DNA from: an uncultured Nitrososphaerota archaeon
Lineage (GTDB): Archaea; Korarchaeota; Korarchaeia; Korarchaeales; Korarchaeaceae
DNA: 32,000 nt
Direction of reading: 5' to 3'
Assembly: GCA_964480775.1 (NCBI GenBank)
Contig: CAYZRF010000006.1
Coordinates: 49,471 to 81,470 of the forward strand
Part shown: piece after piece, positions 10,035-17,309 of the stretch
Layout: each line of letters starts with the position of its first letter
Numbering within the stretch: position 1 is the stretch's first letter
Made by a program: the position numbers and the translations under genes
The notes under the pieces: generated by a model
What the model saw: the letters and a program-made list of their open reading frames with translations, nothing else
Databases searched by the model: none
Told to the model about the DNA's origin: nothing

Positions 10035-10658
10035 ATGCCAACTTCAGAATCTGAAGAATCTGTTGTGAGGTGGACTGCTGAATCCCTTTCTATAACTGCA
10101 GTTGGTATTTGGACTGCTATTTTTCTACTTTGGGCTCTTTACAGTGGGAAACTTAGCCTAGAGCAGGGAATAGCATCTCTAGCTCAAATAGGTTTTATTC
10201 TACTAATTTGGGGAATAGGTGCGCTCATCGTTGCGGGTGGAAGCGGATTAATCTATGGAATGACTGCGAAGAAGGAAGAAGTTGTTAAGGTGGAGGAAAT
10301 AGCCCCACCAAATGCTTTCTTAGGGCCTCATCCACAAGCAGTAAAGGCTGGTCGCTTTATATTTGTGTCATATCAGCTTCCTTTGAATCCTGTAACTGGT
10401 CAGATAATAAAAGGAGATACACTATTACAGGCAAGAGCAGTCCTGGATTCGTTAAAGAATCTTTTACTCTCGAATGAGAAGGGCCTAGAGGATGTCATCA
10501 AACTAACCTTCTATGTAACAAGTCTAGAAAAACAACACGATGTTGAGAGAGCCTACTTAGAAACCTTTACTCATGGAAGGCCTGCTATGACTATAATTGA
10601 AGTTTCAGGACTTCCTTTTGGAGTTGATGTGGCCCTAGATGCTATAGTCAGGGCGTAA
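10035..10658 (+). CDS. Rid (YjgF/YER057c/UK114) family domain fused to an N-terminal two-helix membrane segment
   Basis: Two hydrophobic stretches are ITAVGIWTAIFLLWALY and IGFILLIWGIGALIVAGGSGLIYGM. A Rid-like domain follows: GPHPQAVKAGRFIFVS.QLPLNPVTGQII ... VIKLTFYV ... PAMTIIEVSGLPFGVDVALDAI. Confidence 0.7.
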   Translation: MPTSESEESVVRWTAESLSITAVGIWTAIFLLWALYSGKLSLEQGIASLAQIGFILLIWGIGALIVAGGSGLIYGMTAKKEEVVKVEEIAPPNAFLGPHPQAVKAGRFIFVSYQLPLNPVTGQIIKGDTLLQARAVLDSLKNLLLSNEKGLEDVIKLTFYVTSLEKQHDVERAYLETFTHGRPAMTIIEVSGLPFGVDVALDAIVRA

Positions 10659-12108
10659 TAAGCCCTGACTCCAAGAATTTCCTTCTTATGGTACCGTAGG
10701 CAGTCAAGGCAGCCATAGCAGTAGCAGCTCTTTCTGGTGTTGGATAGGCAGGAAAACCGAGTTCTTCAAATTTTTCTCTAAATGCAACTGCGTATTCGCC
10801 TTGACCTATATCACAAAAAACGATGGGTTTATCAACTCCTCTTGCAACCTCGGCTAATTTTTCAGGAAGAGCGCCAGTTAGCCCAGGCACATGGTGCAAG
10901 GCTAGAACAATTATTCCATCAACGGCCGGACTCTCTAAAAGGATCTCTAAAGATTTCACATAGGCTTCATCATTTGTAGATCCGGTTAGATCAATTGGAT
11001 TTTTAACAGAAGCTATTGGTGGAATTATTCCCCTGTGTTTAAGCTCTTCAAGCCTTTCTTCTGTCTCTCCAGATAGATCTGCAATAATCTGACCTCTGCT
11101 TTCCAGTTCGTCGACGGCCATAACGCCAGCACCCCCACCGTCAGTTAACACGGCAATGCGCTTTCCTTTAGCTGGTGGTTGCATGGAGAGAGCCTTTGCT
11201 ACATCGAAGAGTTCTTCAACATTATTTACTCTTATTATGCCCGCCTGTCTAAAGGCCGCATCATATACGTCATCTCTTCCTGCCATTGCGGCCGTATGAG
11301 AAATGGCTGCGCGGGTCCCAGCCTTGGTTCTAGCTGCCTTTAATACAACGATGGGCTTACTAAGAATCGCTCTTCTAGCTGCATCGATGAATTCCTTACC
11401 TCTTACAAGAGATTCTATGTAAACTAGGATGACACGGGTTTTATAGTCGTTTGCTAGATAATCTATGAGTTCTGCTTCATCCACATCAGCTCTGTTTCCA
11501 TAGCTAACGAACTTTGCTAAACCGAGTCTTTCACCAGCCATGTAGTCTAAACAAGCCACTCCAAAAGCCCCAGATTGAGTTATAAGCGAGATAGATCCAG
11601 ATTTCGGGCGCGGGAAAGATTCAAAGATCTTTCCTCCAATCTCTTTTTCGTAGGGAAGAAACATGGTATCTACTCCAGTTTCTGGACATAATATTCCTAT
11701 GCAGTTTGGCCCGACTACCCTGATACTGTGCTTCTTTGCGGTTTCAACTAATTGTTTCTGTAAATCAATCCCTTCCCCACCTATTTCAGCAAAACCTCCG
11801 CTAATTACGACAATATTCTTTGTACCAAGCTTTCCGAGTTCATCAACAGCTCTAGGAACTAGCTTGGCTGGAATTGCTATGACGGCCAGATCTGGTGGTG
11901 AAGGTAGCTGGGATATTGATGGATAAGTGGCAACGCCCAAGATCTCTCTAGCGTCGGGGTTAACAGCATATAATTCGCCTCTAAACACCCCTCTGTCTTT
12001 GTTCTCCTTTAGAATTCGCAAAATCTCGTGTCCAACTTTACCTGGCTTTCTGGAGGCACCTATAATCGCTATGGTATCTGGATAGAAGAACTTGTCGAGG
12101 AGTAACAT
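10648..12108 (-). CDS. acdA: acetyl-CoA synthetase (ADP-forming) alpha subunit / CoA-binding acyl-CoA synthetase
   Basis: N-terminal CoA-binding motif IAIIGASRKPGKVGHEI, and the phosphohistidine-loop-like AISHTAAMAG. Size and domain order are typical of the ACD alpha subunit. Confidence 0.9.
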   Translation of the reverse strand: MLLLDKFFYPDTIAIIGASRKPGKVGHEILRILKENKDRGVFRGELYAVNPDAREILGVATYPSISQLPSPPDLAVIAIPAKLVPRAVDELGKLGTKNIVVISGGFAEIGGEGIDLQKQLVETAKKHSIRVVGPNCIGILCPETGVDTMFLPYEKEIGGKIFESFPRPKSGSISLITQSGAFGVACLDYMAGERLGLAKFVSYGNRADVDEAELIDYLANDYKTRVILVYIESLVRGKEFIDAARRAILSKPIVVLKAARTKAGTRAAISHTAAMAGRDDVYDAAFRQAGIIRVNNVEELFDVAKALSMQPPAKGKRIAVLTDGGGAGVMAVDELESRGQIIADLSGETEERLEELKHRGIIPPIASVKNPIDLTGSTNDEAYVKSLEILLESPAVDGIIVLALHHVPGLTGALPEKLAEVARGVDKPIVFCDIGQGEYAVAFREKFEELGFPAYPTPERAATAMAALTAYGTIRRKFLESGLITP

Positions 12109-12176
12109 TGTATTTAATGGTGGGTGATCAAAAAATTAAACTACACTGCCAAGTTCTAGAAAGTATCGCTGTTGAC

Positions 12177-12181
12177 AAAAA
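12177..12181 (-). terminator. oligo-T tract (T5 on the minus strand) downstream of the tubulin-like gene
   Basis: A5 on the plus strand, 36 nt past the TAG stop at 12217-12219. A second T6 lies at 12130-12135. Archaeal terminators are oligo-T runs. Confidence 0.3.
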
Positions 12182-12216
12182 CCTCTCGAGGGCTTTAGCG
12201 TTCCATCGTAGGAAGG

Positions 12217-13404
12217 CTAAGTTGACTCTAGATCAAGAGCTTGTTTTAATTCTCTAGCTTTCTGCCTTTTTCTTGCTACTTCCTCAGAATGCTGGCTTAT
12301 TTTCTGAAGAAATTGTTCCAATTCACCTTGATCGGTTCCCTCCACAGAACTAAGCAATTCTTCATGGAGGTCGAAGTAAACTTTTGCAATGTCAACAAGC
12401 TTTGTTATTTTAGGTATTTCTGGCTCAACTAAGATCACTGCAACGTCAGATTCTTCTGAACCTTCTTCTAACCTTCGCAAGCCACTTGCAATATCAATTC
12501 CATTTATTTTGCGGAGGAAAAACTTCTTTACATCCAAAAATCCTTTAACACTGAAGTTTTCTTCCGGAATTCTGAGCACAAAAACCGCCCTAAAAGCAGT
12601 TTCTGGGTCACACTGTGCCATCTTACCTTCTTCAAGAGCGAGTTCAGCCAGTAGATCGAGTACATTACCAACAGTCTCTGACCTAACTCTGGCATAGCAG
12701 GGTACACAAAGTGTAGCCTCTTTCATTTTTAAGATGGATTTGAGACTTTGAGCCGATAAATCTCCTCCTATACCGGTTCCTAGGGAAGATGTCTCTTCAA
12801 ACATGGCTTCAAGGAAGGACGAGATCTTTTCATTGACCTCTATCAAACCCCCACCAACACCCTCTTTGCTTGGTGAAGGAACAAACAAGTCGTTATCTAT
12901 CAAAAGGATGGAATCAGCATGCTCTAAAAGATTAGAAATGGAGATTATGGAGTTATACGAGAACTTTATAGGTTCAATTGGATACATGAAAGGGAGAATT
13001 CCTAGAACGATAATTGGAGGAACAACGCTCTTGTCAGAGAAATATTCTCTCAGATATTTAACAAAAACAGGAGTAGCCCCAGCCCCCGTTCCTCCACCCA
13101 GCGCAGCAAACACCATTATTACTGGTGCTCGCTCGACTTTATTCTCACTAAGGTATTTCATTATCTTCTTTTTGCTGTCGTCCTCTAGCATTAGTTTCAT
13201 GGCTGACTTCCATTGACCACCAACACCCTCTCCAGACTCTCCTAATAAGATGAAGTTCTCCTCTAGCGAAGTCAATTCATCTGCTGTTCTTTGAGAAGTA
13301 TCCAATGCCAATGTTCCGAAAAATCGTTCCTGTCCCATCTTTGAATATACTTGATCTAAAACTCTAACTCCGCCAGATCCTATACCAATGCCAAGTAATT
13401 TCAA
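12217..13404 (-). CDS. divergent FtsZ/tubulin-superfamily GTPase
   Basis: Motifs in canonical order: GIGIGSGG (T1), GEGVGGQW (T3-like), GGGTGAG (signature, nt 13078-13098), ILPF, and DSILLIDND (FtsZ-like). A C-terminal beta domain and a charged helical tail follow. The TTG start has AGGAGG 8 nt upstream and overlaps the upstream stop. Confidence 0.8.
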   Translation of the reverse strand: MKLLGIGIGSGGVRVLDQVYSKMGQERFFGTLALDTSQRTADELTSLEENFILLGESGEGVGGQWKSAMKLMLEDDSKKKIMKYLSENKVERAPVIMVFAALGGGTGAGATPVFVKYLREYFSDKSVVPPIIVLGILPFMYPIEPIKFSYNSIISISNLLEHADSILLIDNDLFVPSPSKEGVGGGLIEVNEKISSFLEAMFEETSSLGTGIGGDLSAQSLKSILKMKEATLCVPCYARVRSETVGNVLDLLAELALEEGKMAQCDPETAFRAVFVLRIPEENFSVKGFLDVKKFFLRKINGIDIASGLRRLEEGSEESDVAVILVEPEIPKITKLVDIAKVYFDLHEELLSSVEGTDQGELEQFLQKISQHSEEVARKRQKARELKQALDLEST

Positions 13405-15182
13405 TCTAGAACTCCTCCTTTTATCTCGACGATAAAACCATCAAGTACGCCCCCTACTTTGTCAATTTCTTTTCTAAGCTTTTTATAATCAGTCTCATCC
13501 TCTATCAATTCAATCTTATCTTCTATGCTCTTTAACTTCATAATAATTCCTTCTAATACCCCCTTCTCTTTTTCCTTTAACGTTTGAACTTGAAGAATAT
13601 CTTCTATTTTCTTCCTTATCTGTAGGATTCTTGATCTAAGATCCTCCTTCATTTTATTTGCTCTTATTTCCGATTTACCTTTTGCAAGAAAGAGAGACTT
13701 CTCTTTTTCTACAATTTTCCCTTCTCTTATTAGTCTTTTTACGACCCAACCCCTCCACTCTTGAGGAACTGAGGATATCTGCTCTACCGCTACCCCCTCG
13801 TTCTTTGAAAGTTCCTTGATCAACCTGTTTCTCCAAATAGGATACATTTTCTCAGCGTCTTCTAGTTTTTGTTTCCAAGTTTCTAGTTTATCCGATGCCT
13901 CTCTTAAATAGGAAAGAAGAGATTCGACTCTTTGAATTGAAGCTTTGGGTGGCAAAATAAGCTTCATCTCTTCTTTCCATCCATTTATCCCAGCTAGAGA
14001 TCTTAGTTCACTATCGGCCCTAGAAATATCCTTGATGAGTTCACCAATAATAATGATCTTATCTATAAGATCTTCAATGACTTTAAGCTCGTGGTCTCTC
14101 TCTCTAAATTTATCCACCGATCTCAAAGTATTTTCTTGTTTTACTAAGTTTATCCTTTGAACTAGGCTGTAATAGACGCCTTCGAATGTTCCTCTGCCAA
14201 CAATAGAATCTATTATCAGACAGGTTCTGAGTGCCCTAGGTAATTTCTTCTCAGCCCTCCTCAAACGATTTGTAAATGCTTTAATTTCCTCTATAATTGC
14301 TAAAGATCCAAGAAGATCTTTTCTCATAATCTCTAATGCAGTCATTTTTTCTCCAATGTTGCTCCTATCTGTTTTGATTTCCTTCTCTTGCATTGATTGA
14401 AGTAAGTATGAGGTCCTGTCAACTAGTTCTTTAATGAAAGGAGCATCCACCCCCTTTTGGTTGATGAATTTCAAATTTTTCTCTAAGCGAGTTAACAACA
14501 ATTTATTATCTTCTAACAACTCTTCCATGTGTTTCTGAATCCTTAAAATCGATTCAAGCCTGATCTTTGCTTCTGAAAGACCCGTATCTATTCTATTGAT
14601 CTCTTCAATACTTTCCATGAGTTCTGATGCGTTTAAATGAATGGATTGTTCGATATCATCAAGAACATAGCCTGCTTTTTCTATCGGTGCAAACGATTCT
14701 TCTTCTACTTTTAACTCCGTAATAAGCCCCTCAACCTCTTCTAGCCTATTTCTAACTTTTTTAGCTCTTGATTTTAATGCTGAAAGGAGATCCTTTTCTA
14801 TTTCTATCAAAATATTCTCTATTAATTCAACAAGCGCCACAATTTTCTCTCTATACCTCCTAATGCTGCCACTTAGAAGAACTGATCTGTTCGCTAAGAT
14901 CTTCTTGTTGTAAAAGGGATCCCTAGTCATATTGTCCAATAACTGTAGCAACTTCTGCTGGATGGCCTCTCTGGACGCTTTGTACTTAGTTATTATTTCT
15001 GGTGCTATGCTATAGTATCTTTCGAATAATTGTTCAATTATCTCTATTTTGTTTAATATCATTATAACATCTTCCAACAGACCATCCTGTGAAAGGTTCT
15101 CAACTAAAAGTGCTGCTTGCTTCCTTCCGTGACGTTTTATTAATGTCTCTTCTAACAGCTTTCGCCCCTGAGAGAACTCCAT
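13401..15182 (-). CDS. 593-aa coiled-coil protein with a winged-helix-like segment (residues 446-502); partner of the tubulin-like GTPase
   Basis: Long uninterrupted ORF with an ATG start, rich in E/K/L/I heptad-like helices. No NTPase or TM motif. The stop overlaps the downstream TTG start (TTGA). Confidence 0.85.
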   Translation of the reverse strand: MEFSQGRKLLEETLIKRHGRKQAALLVENLSQDGLLEDVIMILNKIEIIEQLFERYYSIAPEIITKYKASREAIQQKLLQLLDNMTRDPFYNKKILANRSVLLSGSIRRYREKIVALVELIENILIEIEKDLLSALKSRAKKVRNRLEEVEGLITELKVEEESFAPIEKAGYVLDDIEQSIHLNASELMESIEEINRIDTGLSEAKIRLESILRIQKHMEELLEDNKLLLTRLEKNLKFINQKGVDAPFIKELVDRTSYLLQSMQEKEIKTDRSNIGEKMTALEIMRKDLLGSLAIIEEIKAFTNRLRRAEKKLPRALRTCLIIDSIVGRGTFEGVYYSLVQRINLVKQENTLRSVDKFRERDHELKVIEDLIDKIIIIGELIKDISRADSELRSLAGINGWKEEMKLILPPKASIQRVESLLSYLREASDKLETWKQKLEDAEKMYPIWRNRLIKELSKNEGVAVEQISSVPQEWRGWVVKRLIREGKIVEKEKSLFLAKGKSEIRANKMKEDLRSRILQIRKKIEDILQVQTLKEKEKGVLEGIIMKLKSIEDKIELIEDETDYKKLRKEIDKVGGVLDGFIVEIKGGVLD

Positions 15183-15194
15183 TGATGATATCTA

Positions 15195-15213
15195 GTTAGA
15201 ATATCGTTCTAAC
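15195..15213. promoter_or_regulatory. inverted repeat GTTAGAA-n5-TTCTAAC abutting the TATA-like element (15214-15222, minus strand TTTTATATT) of the coiled-coil/tubulin-like operon
   Basis: A perfect 7-bp inverted repeat lies between the putative TATA box and the ATG at 15182. Confidence 0.35.
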
Positions 15214-15309
15214 AATATAAAATAGTGAACTCTTAGTCAAGGGAAAGAGTAGCATTCTACAGACAAAATAATTCCTAAAGCCACCAACACGTTTTTCTTA
15301 AGCAAAAGT

Positions 15310-16593
15310 CTATTGTAGAGCTTTTGATAGTAGAAGGCCAAGCCTCTTTATTCCTTCTTTGATATCCTTTGGACTAAGGTACGAATAACCGAGCCTCATG
15401 CCATTAGTTTCTGGCTTTAAAACTTCTATTGATTCCCTATCAGGGAAATATGCATATCCAATTCTCGGATAAAATGCTGTTCCAGGCACGTATACAATAT
15501 CATTTTTAAGTGCAACCTCTTCTAAGAACTTCTTTGAATCGAATTTGGCGTTATAAGCACTCCACCAAATAAAGAAACCCCCTTTAGGATCTGTTCTCTT
15601 GCCATCAGGGAAATATTCATCAATTGTTTTCTTCATTACTTCACATCTTTTCTTGTATCCCTCTCTGATCTCTTCAATATGTTCTTTGAAATAGTTCTGG
15701 TAGTAGAGCTTTGCGAGCATTTGCGTTATGACTGGTGTGTTAAGGTCTATGTAGCCCTTAGACTTTATTACCTCCTTCTTGAGTTCTGAAGGAAGGACCG
15801 AATAACCTATTCTAAAGACTGCTGCCTCTTTGCTTGAAGATCGAAGATAAGCAACGGTCGAGTTATCAACATCAAAAGACTTTATGGGAGGTATTCTTTC
15901 CTCACAGAACTGAATTTCGCGGTATGCTGAGTCCTCCACTATCAATATTCCTTCATCATGTGCAACTTCGAATAACTCCTCTCTTCTTTTGAGAGGCATT
16001 GTAGTGCCCGAGGGGTTGTCAGAATCTGGTATAACGTAAACTAAGTCTGGTTTCTTTCCAAATTTTTCATTACTCAACTTAATTGCTCTTTTGACGTGTT
16101 CTGGATCAATTCCCTGCTCTGTCATCGGGATAGTAACTATTTTTGCCCTGAATTTCAATACTGTGTTTACAAAACCAAGGTAAGCTGGTCTTGGAACTAT
16201 AATCACATCTTCAGGGTTTAACAGTACGTCCAGAATTGTATAAATGGCTTGTTGAGAACCTGTTGTGATCAAGACATCCTCCCAATTAACATTTAAGCCA
16301 TCTCTTTCTCTCAACAAATTGGCGAGGGTTTCTCTAAGGTCTTTTAATCCCTCAGTTGGACAATAATTGAATATATCTATTACCTTGTGATTAAAACCCT
16401 CCTCTACAAGTTGTAAGCAATATTTACCAAGTTCAACAAGGATATTAGATAGGGCTCTTGTCGGAAGAACTCCTGGCTTTCCTCCTGCGAAATAATACCT
16501 TACTTTGAATCGTAGAAGCCTTCTAATCTCCGATTCCGGTACTAGCTGTGTCCAAGTAGCGAAATCGAAGGCTTTAGATAGAGGTTTTACCAA
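15310..16593 (-). CDS. class I/II PLP-dependent aminotransferase (ARO8/LysN-like, 2-aminoadipate or aromatic aminotransferase family)
   Basis: YFAGGKPGVLP resembles the LysN/ARO8 FAGGxP motif. SSSK is the candidate PLP-lysine region. The 427-aa length fits. TTG start with GGTG upstream. Confidence 0.85.
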   Translation of the reverse strand: MVKPLSKAFDFATWTQLVPESEIRRLLRFKVRYYFAGGKPGVLPTRALSNILVELGKYCLQLVEEGFNHKVIDIFNYCPTEGLKDLRETLANLLRERDGLNVNWEDVLITTGSQQAIYTILDVLLNPEDVIIVPRPAYLGFVNTVLKFRAKIVTIPMTEQGIDPEHVKRAIKLSNEKFGKKPDLVYVIPDSDNPSGTTMPLKRREELFEVAHDEGILIVEDSAYREIQFCEERIPPIKSFDVDNSTVAYLRSSSKEAAVFRIGYSVLPSELKKEVIKSKGYIDLNTPVITQMLAKLYYQNYFKEHIEEIREGYKKRCEVMKKTIDEYFPDGKRTDPKGGFFIWWSAYNAKFDSKKFLEEVALKNDIVYVPGTAFYPRIGYAYFPDRESIEVLKPETNGMRLGYSYLSPKDIKEGIKRLGLLLSKALQ

Positions 16594-16758: not shown

Positions 16759-17181
16759 CTAATACCTTCTTCTAGAATATGATCTTCCTCCTCTACGGAA
16801 ATCCCTTCCGCCCCTCCTAGGAGGCTCGTACCCTTCAGGTACCTGGGGGCTCTCCTCAGGTACCTCCTCCATTCCAGGGACTTCCGAATCCTCTATCTTC
16901 TCTATGGTTCCTCTGCTGCCTAAGTTAAGGCGGATCTCTCCACGAAACACCCTTGTGTATCCGTTTTTAATCTCCACAGCATCTCCCGTGGAGATTTTAC
17001 CTGCATGCTCTCCCCACAAGGTGAGAGTTACTCTTCCAGTTTCGTCCCCGACAACAGCTTCTGACAGAGTTCTAGGACCTCTAAAGGTCTGAATCTCTTT
17101 TAGTTCTCCTGCATCGAGAACCCGGACCTTTATATTCACTTCGTTCATATCCGGAACTAATTCACTCACTTTCACGGACAT
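16759..17181 (-). CDS. ssb: single OB-fold ssDNA-binding protein (Sulfolobus SSB type) with an RGG-rich C-terminal tail
   Basis: MSVKVSELVPDMNEVNIKVRVLD...EAVVGDETGRVTLTLWGEHAG aligns closely with crenarchaeal SSB as I recall it. The tail is RRGGRDFRRGGRSYSRRRY. The ATG at 17181 fits the homologue N-terminus; the track start is the GTG at 17202. A T6 run (16750-16755) follows the stop. Confidence 0.9.
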   Translation of the reverse strand: MSVKVSELVPDMNEVNIKVRVLDAGELKEIQTFRGPRTLSEAVVGDETGRVTLTLWGEHAGKISTGDAVEIKNGYTRVFRGEIRLNLGSRGTIEKIEDSEVPGMEEVPEESPQVPEGYEPPRRGGRDFRRGGRSYSRRRY

Positions 17182-17309
17182 TCTTCTCAGATCTCCACAC
17201 ACGTTATGTGTAATGTCGTCACACTTTTGGGCTATAAAAAAGTATGTATTTTTGAGAAAACAACAGAGGCATTATATGTAAAAAAACTATGGGTTGAACG
17301 TGATAGCAG

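Follow-up and report, generated by a model that had tools for sequence, protein, structure and literature searches.

A CetZ-proximal tubulin-superfamily gene and its overlapping all-helical partner gene in an uncultivated korarchaeal lineage: a putative filament-plus-adaptor module

The 32,000-nucleotide stretch analysed here, referred to as the window, comes from contig CAYZRF010000006.1 of an uncultured hot-vent archaeon of the Korarchaeaceae (assembly GCA_964480775.1) and contains a pair of overlapping genes for a divergent tubulin-superfamily protein and a long helical partner. Both genes, and all features of the pair given below, lie on the minus strand. The upstream gene (13401..15182, ATG start) encodes the partner, an all-helical protein of 593 amino acids that belongs to an undescribed family. 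The downstream gene (12217..13404, TTG start) encodes a protein of 395 amino acids, a CetZ-proximal, "non-canonical" member of the superfamily by its sequence, for which "GTPase" is used below as a family name. Both open reading frames were found on the strand and at the positions reported in an initial annotation of this DNA, and its motif positions, including those of the TTGA overlap and the AGGAGG site described below, were all exact when checked by script. In agreement with that annotation, the partner contains no Walker A motif and no transmembrane segment, with a maximum Kyte–Doolittle value over 19 residues of 1.2 (1.21); the GTPase likewise has neither (maximum of 1.6).

The two genes meet in a 4-nt overlap, TTGA (13401..13404), that joins the TTG start codon of the GTPase to the TGA stop codon of the partner. 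A Shine–Dalgarno-like AGGAGG lies within the partner coding sequence (13414..13419), 9 nt ahead of the TTG; the 8-nt spacing claimed in the initial annotation holds if the core is read as GGAGGA. From partner end to GTPase start, the junction reads aaAGGAGGagttctagaTTGA (also given as AAGGAGGagttctagaTTGA). All 5/5 clade members examined keep the AAGGAGG sequence, the spacer length, the TTG start, the 4-nt overlap, and also the wobble positions of both glycine codons within AAGGAGG; in L001, L003, and L005, the called partner and GTPase genes share 4 nt. The bases of the GTPase ribosome-binding site (AAGGAGG or GAAGGAGG) are at the same time the K/E-G-G codons at the C terminus of the partner, both in the window (13404-13421) and in L001, L003, L005, and L008.

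Upstream of the pair, a B recognition element (BRE)/TATA-like element, CACTATTTTATATTGT (15212..15227), is located ~36 nt before the partner ATG and is a putative promoter; the corresponding block, CAC(C/T)ATTTT(A)TATT, is the sole conserved block in the intergenic DNA upstream of the partner in four clade genomes. A palindrome between this element and the partner ATG (GTTAGAA-N6-TTCTAAC, 15189-15219) was considered as an operator and rejected for want of conservation in three relatives. Downstream of the pair, a T5 run follows the GTPase stop codon (12177-12181), and the region between the GTPase gene and the downstream CoA-ligase gene holds a single conserved block, the GTAGTTTAATTTTT box (12131..12144), which serves as a boundary marker and is assigned as the promoter of the CoA-ligase gene. 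Since this box is the only conserved block there, the pair would be a separate bicistronic unit, and the conserved elements support a unit with its own promoter. The TATA-like element that had been claimed for the pair is thus conserved in clade genomes, and the downstream gene has one of its own.

The nucleotide-binding domain of the GTPase (residues 1-200; 12805..13404) contains the T1 (GIGSGG), T3 (GEGVGG), and T4 (GGGTGAG) signatures of the superfamily together with DNDLF, and was modelled by AlphaFold2 (AF2) with predicted local distance difference test (pLDDT) scores of 65-86. In full, the motifs are GIGIGSGG (residues 5-12), GEGVGGQW (58-65), GGGTGAG (103-109; nt 13078-13098), ILPF (136-139), and DSILLIDND (164-172), and a charged tail occupies residues 361-395. 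In profile searches of the kind that the initial annotation had proposed, Pfam Tubulin (PF00091) matched residues 5-172 with 72.4 bits (cut-off, 33; E=7.8e-20), which indicates that the motifs did not arise by chance, and more than 1000 Foldseek matches connect the protein to FtsZ, CetZ, and tubulin structures. The 395-residue protein is a member of the tubulin/FtsZ superfamily. The glycines of T1, T3, and T4 are invariant in a bridging alignment of 15 sequences, as are P112, P138, D170, N171, and N191. The same searches bear out the earlier view that the protein is not the canonical division FtsZ: its score against the FtsZ equivalog TIGR00065 is 36.3 bits (cut-off, 295.2), and FtsZ_C is absent from the Pfam scan at E<=1. 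The TubZ-type profile Tubulin_2 (PF13809) is also below its cut-off (23 bits vs 27) and covers residues 81-138 only.

Sequence and fold comparisons both lead to CetZ. The best sequence matches of the GTPase in the Protein Data Bank (PDB; phmmer) are CetZ1 (4b46, 1.6e-15) and CetZ2 (4b45, 6.7e-15), the FtsZ and tubulin matches lying at ~1e-5 to 1e-6 and the best FtsZ structure at 8.6e-06; the top Foldseek match is Haloferax volcanii CetZ1 (4b46; 4.7e-10, 28% identity), with CetZ2 (4b45) in third place. The C-terminal CetZ_C domain (PF21011, gathering cut-off 21.6 bits) had no match in the window GTPase, P0007, or P0017, and a home-made CetZ_C hidden Markov model (HMM) gave only 16 bits on the window GTPase. 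Among relatives the CetZ_C score descends from 231 bits in canonical CetZ (P0022) through P0025 (184), P0023 (113), P0021 (76), P0018 (54), P0024 (43), P0019 (18.5), and P0016 (17.2) to none in P0017 and the window clade. With CetZ_C undetected, the GTPase falls outside the definition of CetZ; judged by its sequence, it is closest to the CetZ family without being a canonical CetZ.

When the clade profile was run in HMMER against 1.84 billion representatives, 280 proteins matched at E<=1e-3. Only three clusters were found at E<=1e-30, namely the clade's own, P0016 (1e-74), and P0017 (8e-33), indicating that the GTPase lineage is narrow; P0018, P0019, P0021, and P0024 came next, and then a Halogeometricum CetZ as the top named match. 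A rough neighbour-joining tree, computed without support values and without labelled Thermococcales, FtsZ1, or FtsZ2 references, joins the window clade with P0016 and P0017 as sister to P0018/P0019/P0024, outside the large CetZ_C-positive cluster. At the C terminus, the charged helical tail (residues 355-395; 12220..12342) is strongly conserved in the clade and is modelled by AF2, at low confidence, as a helix spanning residues 359-391. A comparable extra helix occurs in P0016-P0019 and P0024 and is absent from canonical CetZ, and the tail is a candidate partner-binding element.

What distinguishes the window clade is its T7 (synergy) loop, GG(D/E)LSAQSLKSIL (residues 213-225; 12730..12768), in which S217 and S220 replace both catalytic acidic residues. 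These acidic residues activate GTP hydrolysis in the neighbouring protofilament subunit. The loop of E. coli FtsZ, which we take to be NVDFADVRTVM and use only as a positional guide, presumably places D209 and D212 at the positions of window S217 and 220, and a HMMER alignment of bridging profile A10 with CetZ1 (4b46) sets S217 opposite D215 and S220 opposite E218. The corresponding sequences are VVDSSEIINTL in CetZ1, FDSQDLKSIL in P0016, FDPQDLKAIL in P0017, and (D/E)LSAQ(S/T/G)LKSIL in the window clade, with no indel between the clade and P0016 in the T7 region of MAFFT alignments. Residue 217 is serine in 9/9 clade sequences and residue 220 is serine, threonine, or glycine. D-x-x-[DE] is kept in every other lineage aligned, the loss of the acidic residues being confined to the window clade.

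The comparisons also argue strongly that the GTPase is under strong purifying selection: its identity is 73-92% between genomes whose partners share 41-64%. For CetZ1, the mutant in standard use to block GTPase activity is E218A, whose polymers are hyperstable (bioRxiv 10.1101/2024.04.08.588506). With both T7 acidic residues lost, stable filaments with slow or no GTP hydrolysis are to be expected, and "GTPase" as a description of activity is doubtful; we infer a selected nucleotide-binding polymer with poor hydrolysis. Some bona fide members of the superfamily, such as beta-tubulin, also lack a T7 acidic residue, so the T7 result qualifies the activity of the protein and not its membership in the superfamily.

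The partner had no match in Pfam, NCBIfam, PDB sequences, PHROGs, or PADLOC, and a whole-chain Foldseek search against the PDB returned nothing at E<0.1 (best, E=0.47), consistent with the earlier proposal that it belongs to no characterised family. Its AF2 model, built from an alignment of eight sequences, has a mean pLDDT of 85.4 and a predicted template modelling (pTM) score of 0.52 and describes an all-helical rod with one winged-helix-like domain. The protein had initially been described as a coiled coil; helices of 45-58 residues are indeed modelled, and "long helices" is the better term. The N-terminal region (residues 1-95; 14898..15182) consists of four helices (H2-18, H20-32, H36-56, H61-87) and is the most conserved part, in which the invariant columns cluster; it is recognisable in the homologue from the L011 lineage described below, which aligns from profile position 22. 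A linker with the motif DPFYNxKIL..SVLLSGSIRRYRE (residues 88-112; 14847..14921) follows and is near-invariant in the clade. Within it (DPFYN..SVLLSGSIRRY), the pLDDT falls to 57 at residues 90-100 despite the strong conservation, and DP...K...G..RRY is retained in the L011, L096, and L097 homologues, making the linker a candidate binding motif. The helical rod (residues 100-445; 13848..14885) alternates long helices of 58, 58, 56, 33, and 45 residues with short ones at a periodicity of ~86 residues; internal sequence repeats were looked for in the rod and rejected (best hhalign probability, 6.7%). Three C-terminal helices (residues 504-593; 13404..13673) end in K-G-G-V-x-D; in the L011 lineage, a Pro/Ala-rich linker and a short conserved helix take their place.

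Between rod and C-terminal helices lies the winged-helix-like domain (residues 446-503; 13674..13847), with the motif P-x-W-(21 aa)-[IV]P-x-x-[WY]-[RK]-x-[WF]-V. The modelled secondary structure (the end of H416-460, H474-486, E490-493, and E496-499) agrees with the winged helix-turn-helix look noted earlier for residues 446-502 (nt 13677-13847). Motif and spacing are common to the L011, L096, L097, and L012 homologues, and W450, P473, and V480 are invariant across distant homologues. The net charge of the domain varies among homologues from +5 to -5, the window protein's own domain being basic (pI ~10, +5 to +6), which indicates that DNA binding is not a conserved property of the partner family. 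This variation and the nature of the invariant residues (W, P, V) make the DNA binding that had been suggested on first inspection doubtful. The winged-helix profile alone found no assignable family in PDB or Pfam. Among whole-chain fold matches, EzrA ranks second without reaching significance (4uxv; E=0.82, probability 0.38, TM 0.23-0.25), and the other weak matches, to spectrin-repeat proteins and to winged helices of the SelB, CRP, and Lrp types, are not significant either. MAP65_ASE1 and EAP30 gave no Pfam match at E<=1 and do not appear among the top 50 Foldseek matches.

The partner accompanies the GTPase beyond its own clade, in a test of conservation that the initial annotation had proposed. 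In the window clade, the partner homologues P0009-P0015 are 41-64% identical. In L011, L096, and L097, which represent a sister Korarchaeota lineage with a ~35% identical GTPase, a protein of 619-657 residues is encoded directly upstream of the GTPase, matches the partner HMM with E=2.3e-30 over profile positions 22-496, and carries P-x-W-(21)-IP-x-x-W-R-x-W-V. L012, whose GTPase P0017 is 27% identical, encodes ~3 kb away and on the opposite strand a helical protein of 577 residues that has the same motif with the same spacing and aligns to the partner profile in hhalign with a probability of 73% (E=3e-5). Nothing else of its neighbourhood is shared with the window. As controls, the CetZ_C-positive relatives P0023 and P0021 have no such partner as a neighbour, and no partner homologue was seen apart from a GTPase homologue within the limited depth of the searches. 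A scan of genome contigs with the GTPase alignment found four close relatives only, the peptide patterns being clade-specific. A degenerate DNA pattern for the winged helix matched 79 loci in metagenome contigs, none with partner or GTPase, a result that is uninformative given that relatives are known in JGI metagenomes. Other proteins in the same 90% clusters carry annotations that assign them to metagenome-assembled genomes from the Guaymas Basin, labelled "Thermoproteota archaeon" or "Candidatus Korarchaeota archaeon".

The sister lineage places the pair in a different setting. The gene order in L011, L096, and L097 is SMC (structural maintenance of chromosomes), a kleisin-like gene, ScpB, partner, and GTPase, on one strand and with gaps of 1-66 nt. 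The first three resemble a compact condensin operon (L011:2700-5983; L096:3598-6803; L097:3484-6746), in which the SMC is unusually short (739-758 residues, with SMC_N and hinge domains) and ScpB is short as well (147-160 residues). The gene that overlaps SMC encodes 192-196 residues with a faint Rad21/Rec8 C-terminal signal (E=0.08). A TATA-like GATAAAAATAG, fully conserved in the three genomes, lies ~25 nt before the partner start and suggests a transcript separate from that of the SMC genes.

In L012, the partner homologue (12327-14060) lies within a string of eukaryote-type ubiquitin-system genes (L012:11306-16678, minus strand) that encode a YukD/ubiquitin-like protein of 94 residues, an E2 (UQ_con, 174 residues), a JAB deubiquitinase-like protein (217 residues), an E1 (ThiF, 387 residues), the 577-residue protein, an unknown protein of 142 residues, and a coiled-coil protein of 199 residues that carries a Prok-RING_1 finger (E=5.5e-7). 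This context suggests a possible link of the partner family to protein modification.

The P0018, P0019, and P0024 loci (L013:7339-10733; L014:873-4034; L015:4175-7320) contain a recurring three-gene module of a small upstream protein, the GTPase, and a helical protein of 400-495 residues that ends in IPxxW...MFERYD(I/L)RR. The small protein is a polytopic membrane protein of ~200 residues in L013 and L014 (36.8% identical) and an unrelated protein of 164 residues in L015. Homology of these helical proteins to the partner was rejected (hhalign probability, 0.6%), leaving an analogy only; as an analogy, the adjacent helical protein supports a parallel module in this group. P0028 (699 residues, from a Logan contig of 6848 nt) joins a CetZ-like domain (residues 20-372) to a K/E-rich, apparently helical C-terminal extension of ~320 residues, and may be a fused version of the filament-plus-helical-partner theme. 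Fusion proteins among the distant GTPase matches, P0028 included, were discarded as fusions to the partner itself, as none matched the partner HMMs.

Close relatives are syntenic with the window over >15 kb. The pair is flanked by genes for a CDC48 ATPase, threonyl-tRNA synthetase, a class I tRNA synthetase, ThyX, dCTP deaminase, and an ADP-forming CoA ligase, and further by an aminotransferase, an OB-fold protein, and a beta-lactamase-fold nuclease. The initial description of the flanks as unrelated housekeeping genes is confirmed by their synteny in several genomes. The 735-residue open reading frame at 587-2794 was considered as an SMC and identified as the CDC48 AAA ATPase, and no SMC was found in the 32-kb window. 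At 10035-10658 (plus strand), the window encodes a RidA/L-PSP-family protein of 207 residues, assigned by Pfam via the syntenic L001 gene, with a hydrophobic N-terminal extension of ~80 residues that could form two or three membrane helices; the 3' end of its gene shares 11 nt with the CoA-ligase gene, which is convergent. At 16759-17202 (minus strand), it encodes an OB-fold protein of 147 residues that resembles single-stranded DNA-binding proteins and has an Arg/Gly-rich tail, PPRRGGRDFRRGGRSYSRRRY, that recalls nucleic acid-binding tails of the RGG type.

Among known systems, the GTPase resembles CetZ in its N-terminal start (MKLxxIGxGxxGG), in its nucleotide-binding motifs, and in a faint CetZ_C-like signal in the C-terminal domain, and its relatives form graded intermediates up to canonical CetZ. 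In contrast to CetZ, with which it shares ~26% identity, the window GTPase gives no Pfam match to CetZ_C, has S-x-x-S for D-x-x-E in T7, carries an extra charged C-terminal helix, and has a translationally coupled partner, which the canonical-type relatives P0023 and P0021 do not. Surveys of CetZ neighbourhoods report no such partner (PMC9856176). The CetZ clade has been defined as bounded by Thermococcales CetZ (Brown & Duggin 2023, PMC9856176), and in the terms of that work the window GTPase ranks, by sequence, among the "non-canonical" proteins of the tubulin superfamily, on the side of CetZ. Kohtz et al. 2022 (PMC9723716) note that Korarchaeia, Bathyarchaeia, and Culexarchaeia encode FtsZ-like proteins, as yet uncharacterised, whose branches lie between FtsZ2 and CetZ. 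These "non-canonical" FtsZ-like proteins of TACK archaea belong to the same broad category as the window GTPase; the papers, to the extent available, give tree positions and describe neither a partner gene nor an analysis of T7.

The nearest published parallel in architecture is the OdinTubulin locus of Odinarchaeota LCB_4, where an upstream orphan "Prc1-Snf8-like" protein combines a helical/coiled-coil N-terminal part with a C-terminal part of the winged-helix (Snf8/ESCRT-II-like) type, and where another coiled-coil gene also flanks the tubulin gene (PMC9871819). The adaptors were compared by description only, and OdinTubulin, unlike the window GTPase, is close to eukaryotic tubulin. A filament protein with an adaptor encoded next to it is a known design, represented by TubZ–TubR, BtubAB–BtubC, and FtsZ with EzrA, SepF, or ZapA. 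EzrA, a spectrin-like FtsZ regulator of Firmicutes without a winged helix, resembles the partner as a long, all-helical protein (~560 residues) that acts on a tubulin-family filament; the partner differs in having no N-terminal membrane anchor, no sequence similarity, and no EzrA Pfam match. The TubZ–TubR(–TubY) systems share with the window pair the position of the tubulin-family gene downstream of a gene for a winged-helix protein. In contrast to them, the window pair is chromosomal and has no tubC-type repeats, and its adaptor is six times larger and unrelated by sequence.

Based on these observations, we consider a chromosomal cytoskeletal module probable, if only somewhat so: a stable CetZ-like filament would be joined by a helical adaptor, made along with it in stoichiometric amounts, whose task is to bundle, anchor, or remodel the polymer. 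In such a module, the GTPase would bind GTP and assemble into long-lived filaments with slow or no hydrolysis, like CetZ1 E218A. The translational coupling given by the TTGA overlap and the internal AGGAGG is proposed to have the partner made in fixed proportion to the filament protein. The partner would be the scaffold, elongated, all-helical, and equipped with a single winged-helix domain, and would contact the filament, most likely through the C-terminal helix of the GTPase, its own N-terminal region, or the DPFYN..SIRRY linker. By bundling, anchoring, or remodelling the polymer, the scaffold would replace the role of nucleotide hydrolysis, and the winged helix would link the polymer to another cellular component. 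The module might help to shape the cell, to divide it, or to handle the chromosome. These archaea are uncultivated, and every statement on function, including those on polymerisation and physical interaction, is an inference. Of the initial proposal of a filament-plus-adaptor pair distinct from the canonical FtsZ, the recurrence of the gene pair and the distinction from canonical FtsZ are supported, and the analogy to TubZRC-type segregation fails.

Several points weigh against this model. Catalysis might be restored in part by the D or E at position 215, which is acidic. AAGGAGG also codes for K-G-G, so that its conservation is confounded and constraint on the protein is inseparable from constraint on the RNA. 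The AF2 model of the GTPase, from an alignment of nine sequences, has a pLDDT of 52 overall and <50 at residues 171-355; its C-terminal half is unreliable and gives no structural backing to the beta-rich C-terminal domain of the initial annotation. The L012 partner match is only moderately significant. The searches for the partner family were not exhaustive; a word-indexed profile search missed even the L011 homologue, so that partner homologues without a GTPase neighbour may exist. Finally, the downstream CoA-ligase gene is common to the window clade and the L011 lineage, and adjacency of partner and GTPase in the two may thus be inherited synteny.

This last point leads to an alternative in which the adjacency is coincidental or merely inherited, the partner being an unrelated protein with a structural or regulatory function that lies upstream by chance. 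Because close relatives are syntenic over >15 kb, adjacency within the clade carries little information, and the CoA-ligase gene beside the GTPase is equally conserved in both Korarchaeota lineages. The 4-nt overlap with its internal ribosome-binding site in all five clade members would not be expected from chance, however, nor would the presence in L012 of partner and GTPase homologues no more than 3 kb apart, in a neighbourhood that is otherwise unshared; together with the failure to see a partner homologue away from a GTPase homologue, within the depth searched, this makes coincidence very unlikely. A partition system of the TubZRC type (type III), belonging to a plasmid, a virus, or an integrated element, was the analogy drawn in the initial annotation from the adaptor-then-GTPase order and the winged helix, which resemble tubR–tubZ, and the weak Tubulin_2 match (23 bits vs 27) could be read in its favour. 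That match is below cut-off, and no iterons or centromere-like repeats were found at 12000-15500, where the only repeats are short two-copy chance ones and the one palindrome (15189-15219) is not conserved. The housekeeping flanks are conserved and base composition is flat across the window; PHROGs and PADLOC gave no meaningful match; the plasmid matches of the GTPase are haloarchaeal CetZ-like genes only, and the partner has none. With a partner of 593 residues, compared with ~100 for TubR, and a winged helix whose charge is not conserved, this analogy is largely refuted and the remaining chance for it is minimal.

The other alternatives accept the pair and assign it a specific role. The divergent FtsZ-like protein and an EzrA-like or ZapA-like regulator might form a cell-division ring that replaces FtsZ1/FtsZ2 or Cdv. 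For TACK lineages without CdvA and CdvB, Kohtz et al. (PMC9723716) propose a possible division role of arCOG02202, a clade of divergent FtsZ-like proteins, and EzrA is the second-ranked, if non-significant, fold match of the partner. A ring that treadmills in a GTPase-dependent manner is hard to square with the loss of the T7 acidic residues, TIGR00065 is far under its cut-off and FtsZ_C undetected, the partner has no membrane anchor of the kind found in EzrA, and the neighbourhood contains no division genes, so that a division ring seems quite improbable. A role in chromosome organisation or segregation, in which filament and winged-helix scaffold work with SMC–ScpAB and the winged helix binds DNA or a partner of the kleisin/ScpB type, appears unlikely but less so. 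ScpB and kleisins bind partners through winged-helix domains; the window winged helix is basic, and the single-strand order from SMC to GTPase in three sister genomes, together with the faint Rad21/Rec8 signal of the gene between SMC and ScpB, speaks for such a role. The three genomes are closely related, however, and together amount to a single observation. On the other side, the CoA-ligase gene is packed equally tightly, GATAAAAATAG suggests a separate transcript, the window clade has an aminotransferase gene upstream and no SMC in 32 kb, and the charge of the winged helix is not conserved. The more specific claim, that filament and adaptor are physically coupled to SMC–ScpAB in a filament-based archaeal chromosome segregation with related modules in other TACK lineages, is considered quite unlikely. 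The cytoskeletal module with a stable filament and a helical adaptor remains the preferred reading.

To our knowledge, shape, division, and segregation in archaea beyond the model haloarchaea and Sulfolobales are largely unknown, and we know of no dedicated binding partner described for a CetZ-type filament. No description of this gene pair was found in the literature searched. The partner family, its linkage to this GTPase lineage, and the clade-specific T7 loss are new as far as the searches reach. The earlier statement that no archaeal system of this architecture had been described therefore stands for the pair and not for the GTPase alone, as non-canonical FtsZ-like proteins in Korarchaeia are already reported (PMC9723716).

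Loss of the E218 equivalent under strong purifying selection argues that selection can favour a stable, non-hydrolysing polymer of the tubulin family as an end state, beyond its occurrence in a laboratory mutant. The new adaptor family, with its well-predicted structure, gives concrete constructs for interaction and polymerisation assays. The sister lineage offers a genomic hint that a tubulin-like filament may be linked to condensin; if such coupling were true, it would be a prokaryotic analogue of a spindle-to-chromatin linker. More generally, the recurrence of a filament gene beside an orphan helical protein in divergent archaeal loci, including that of OdinTubulin, may bear on the origins of microtubule-associated proteins.

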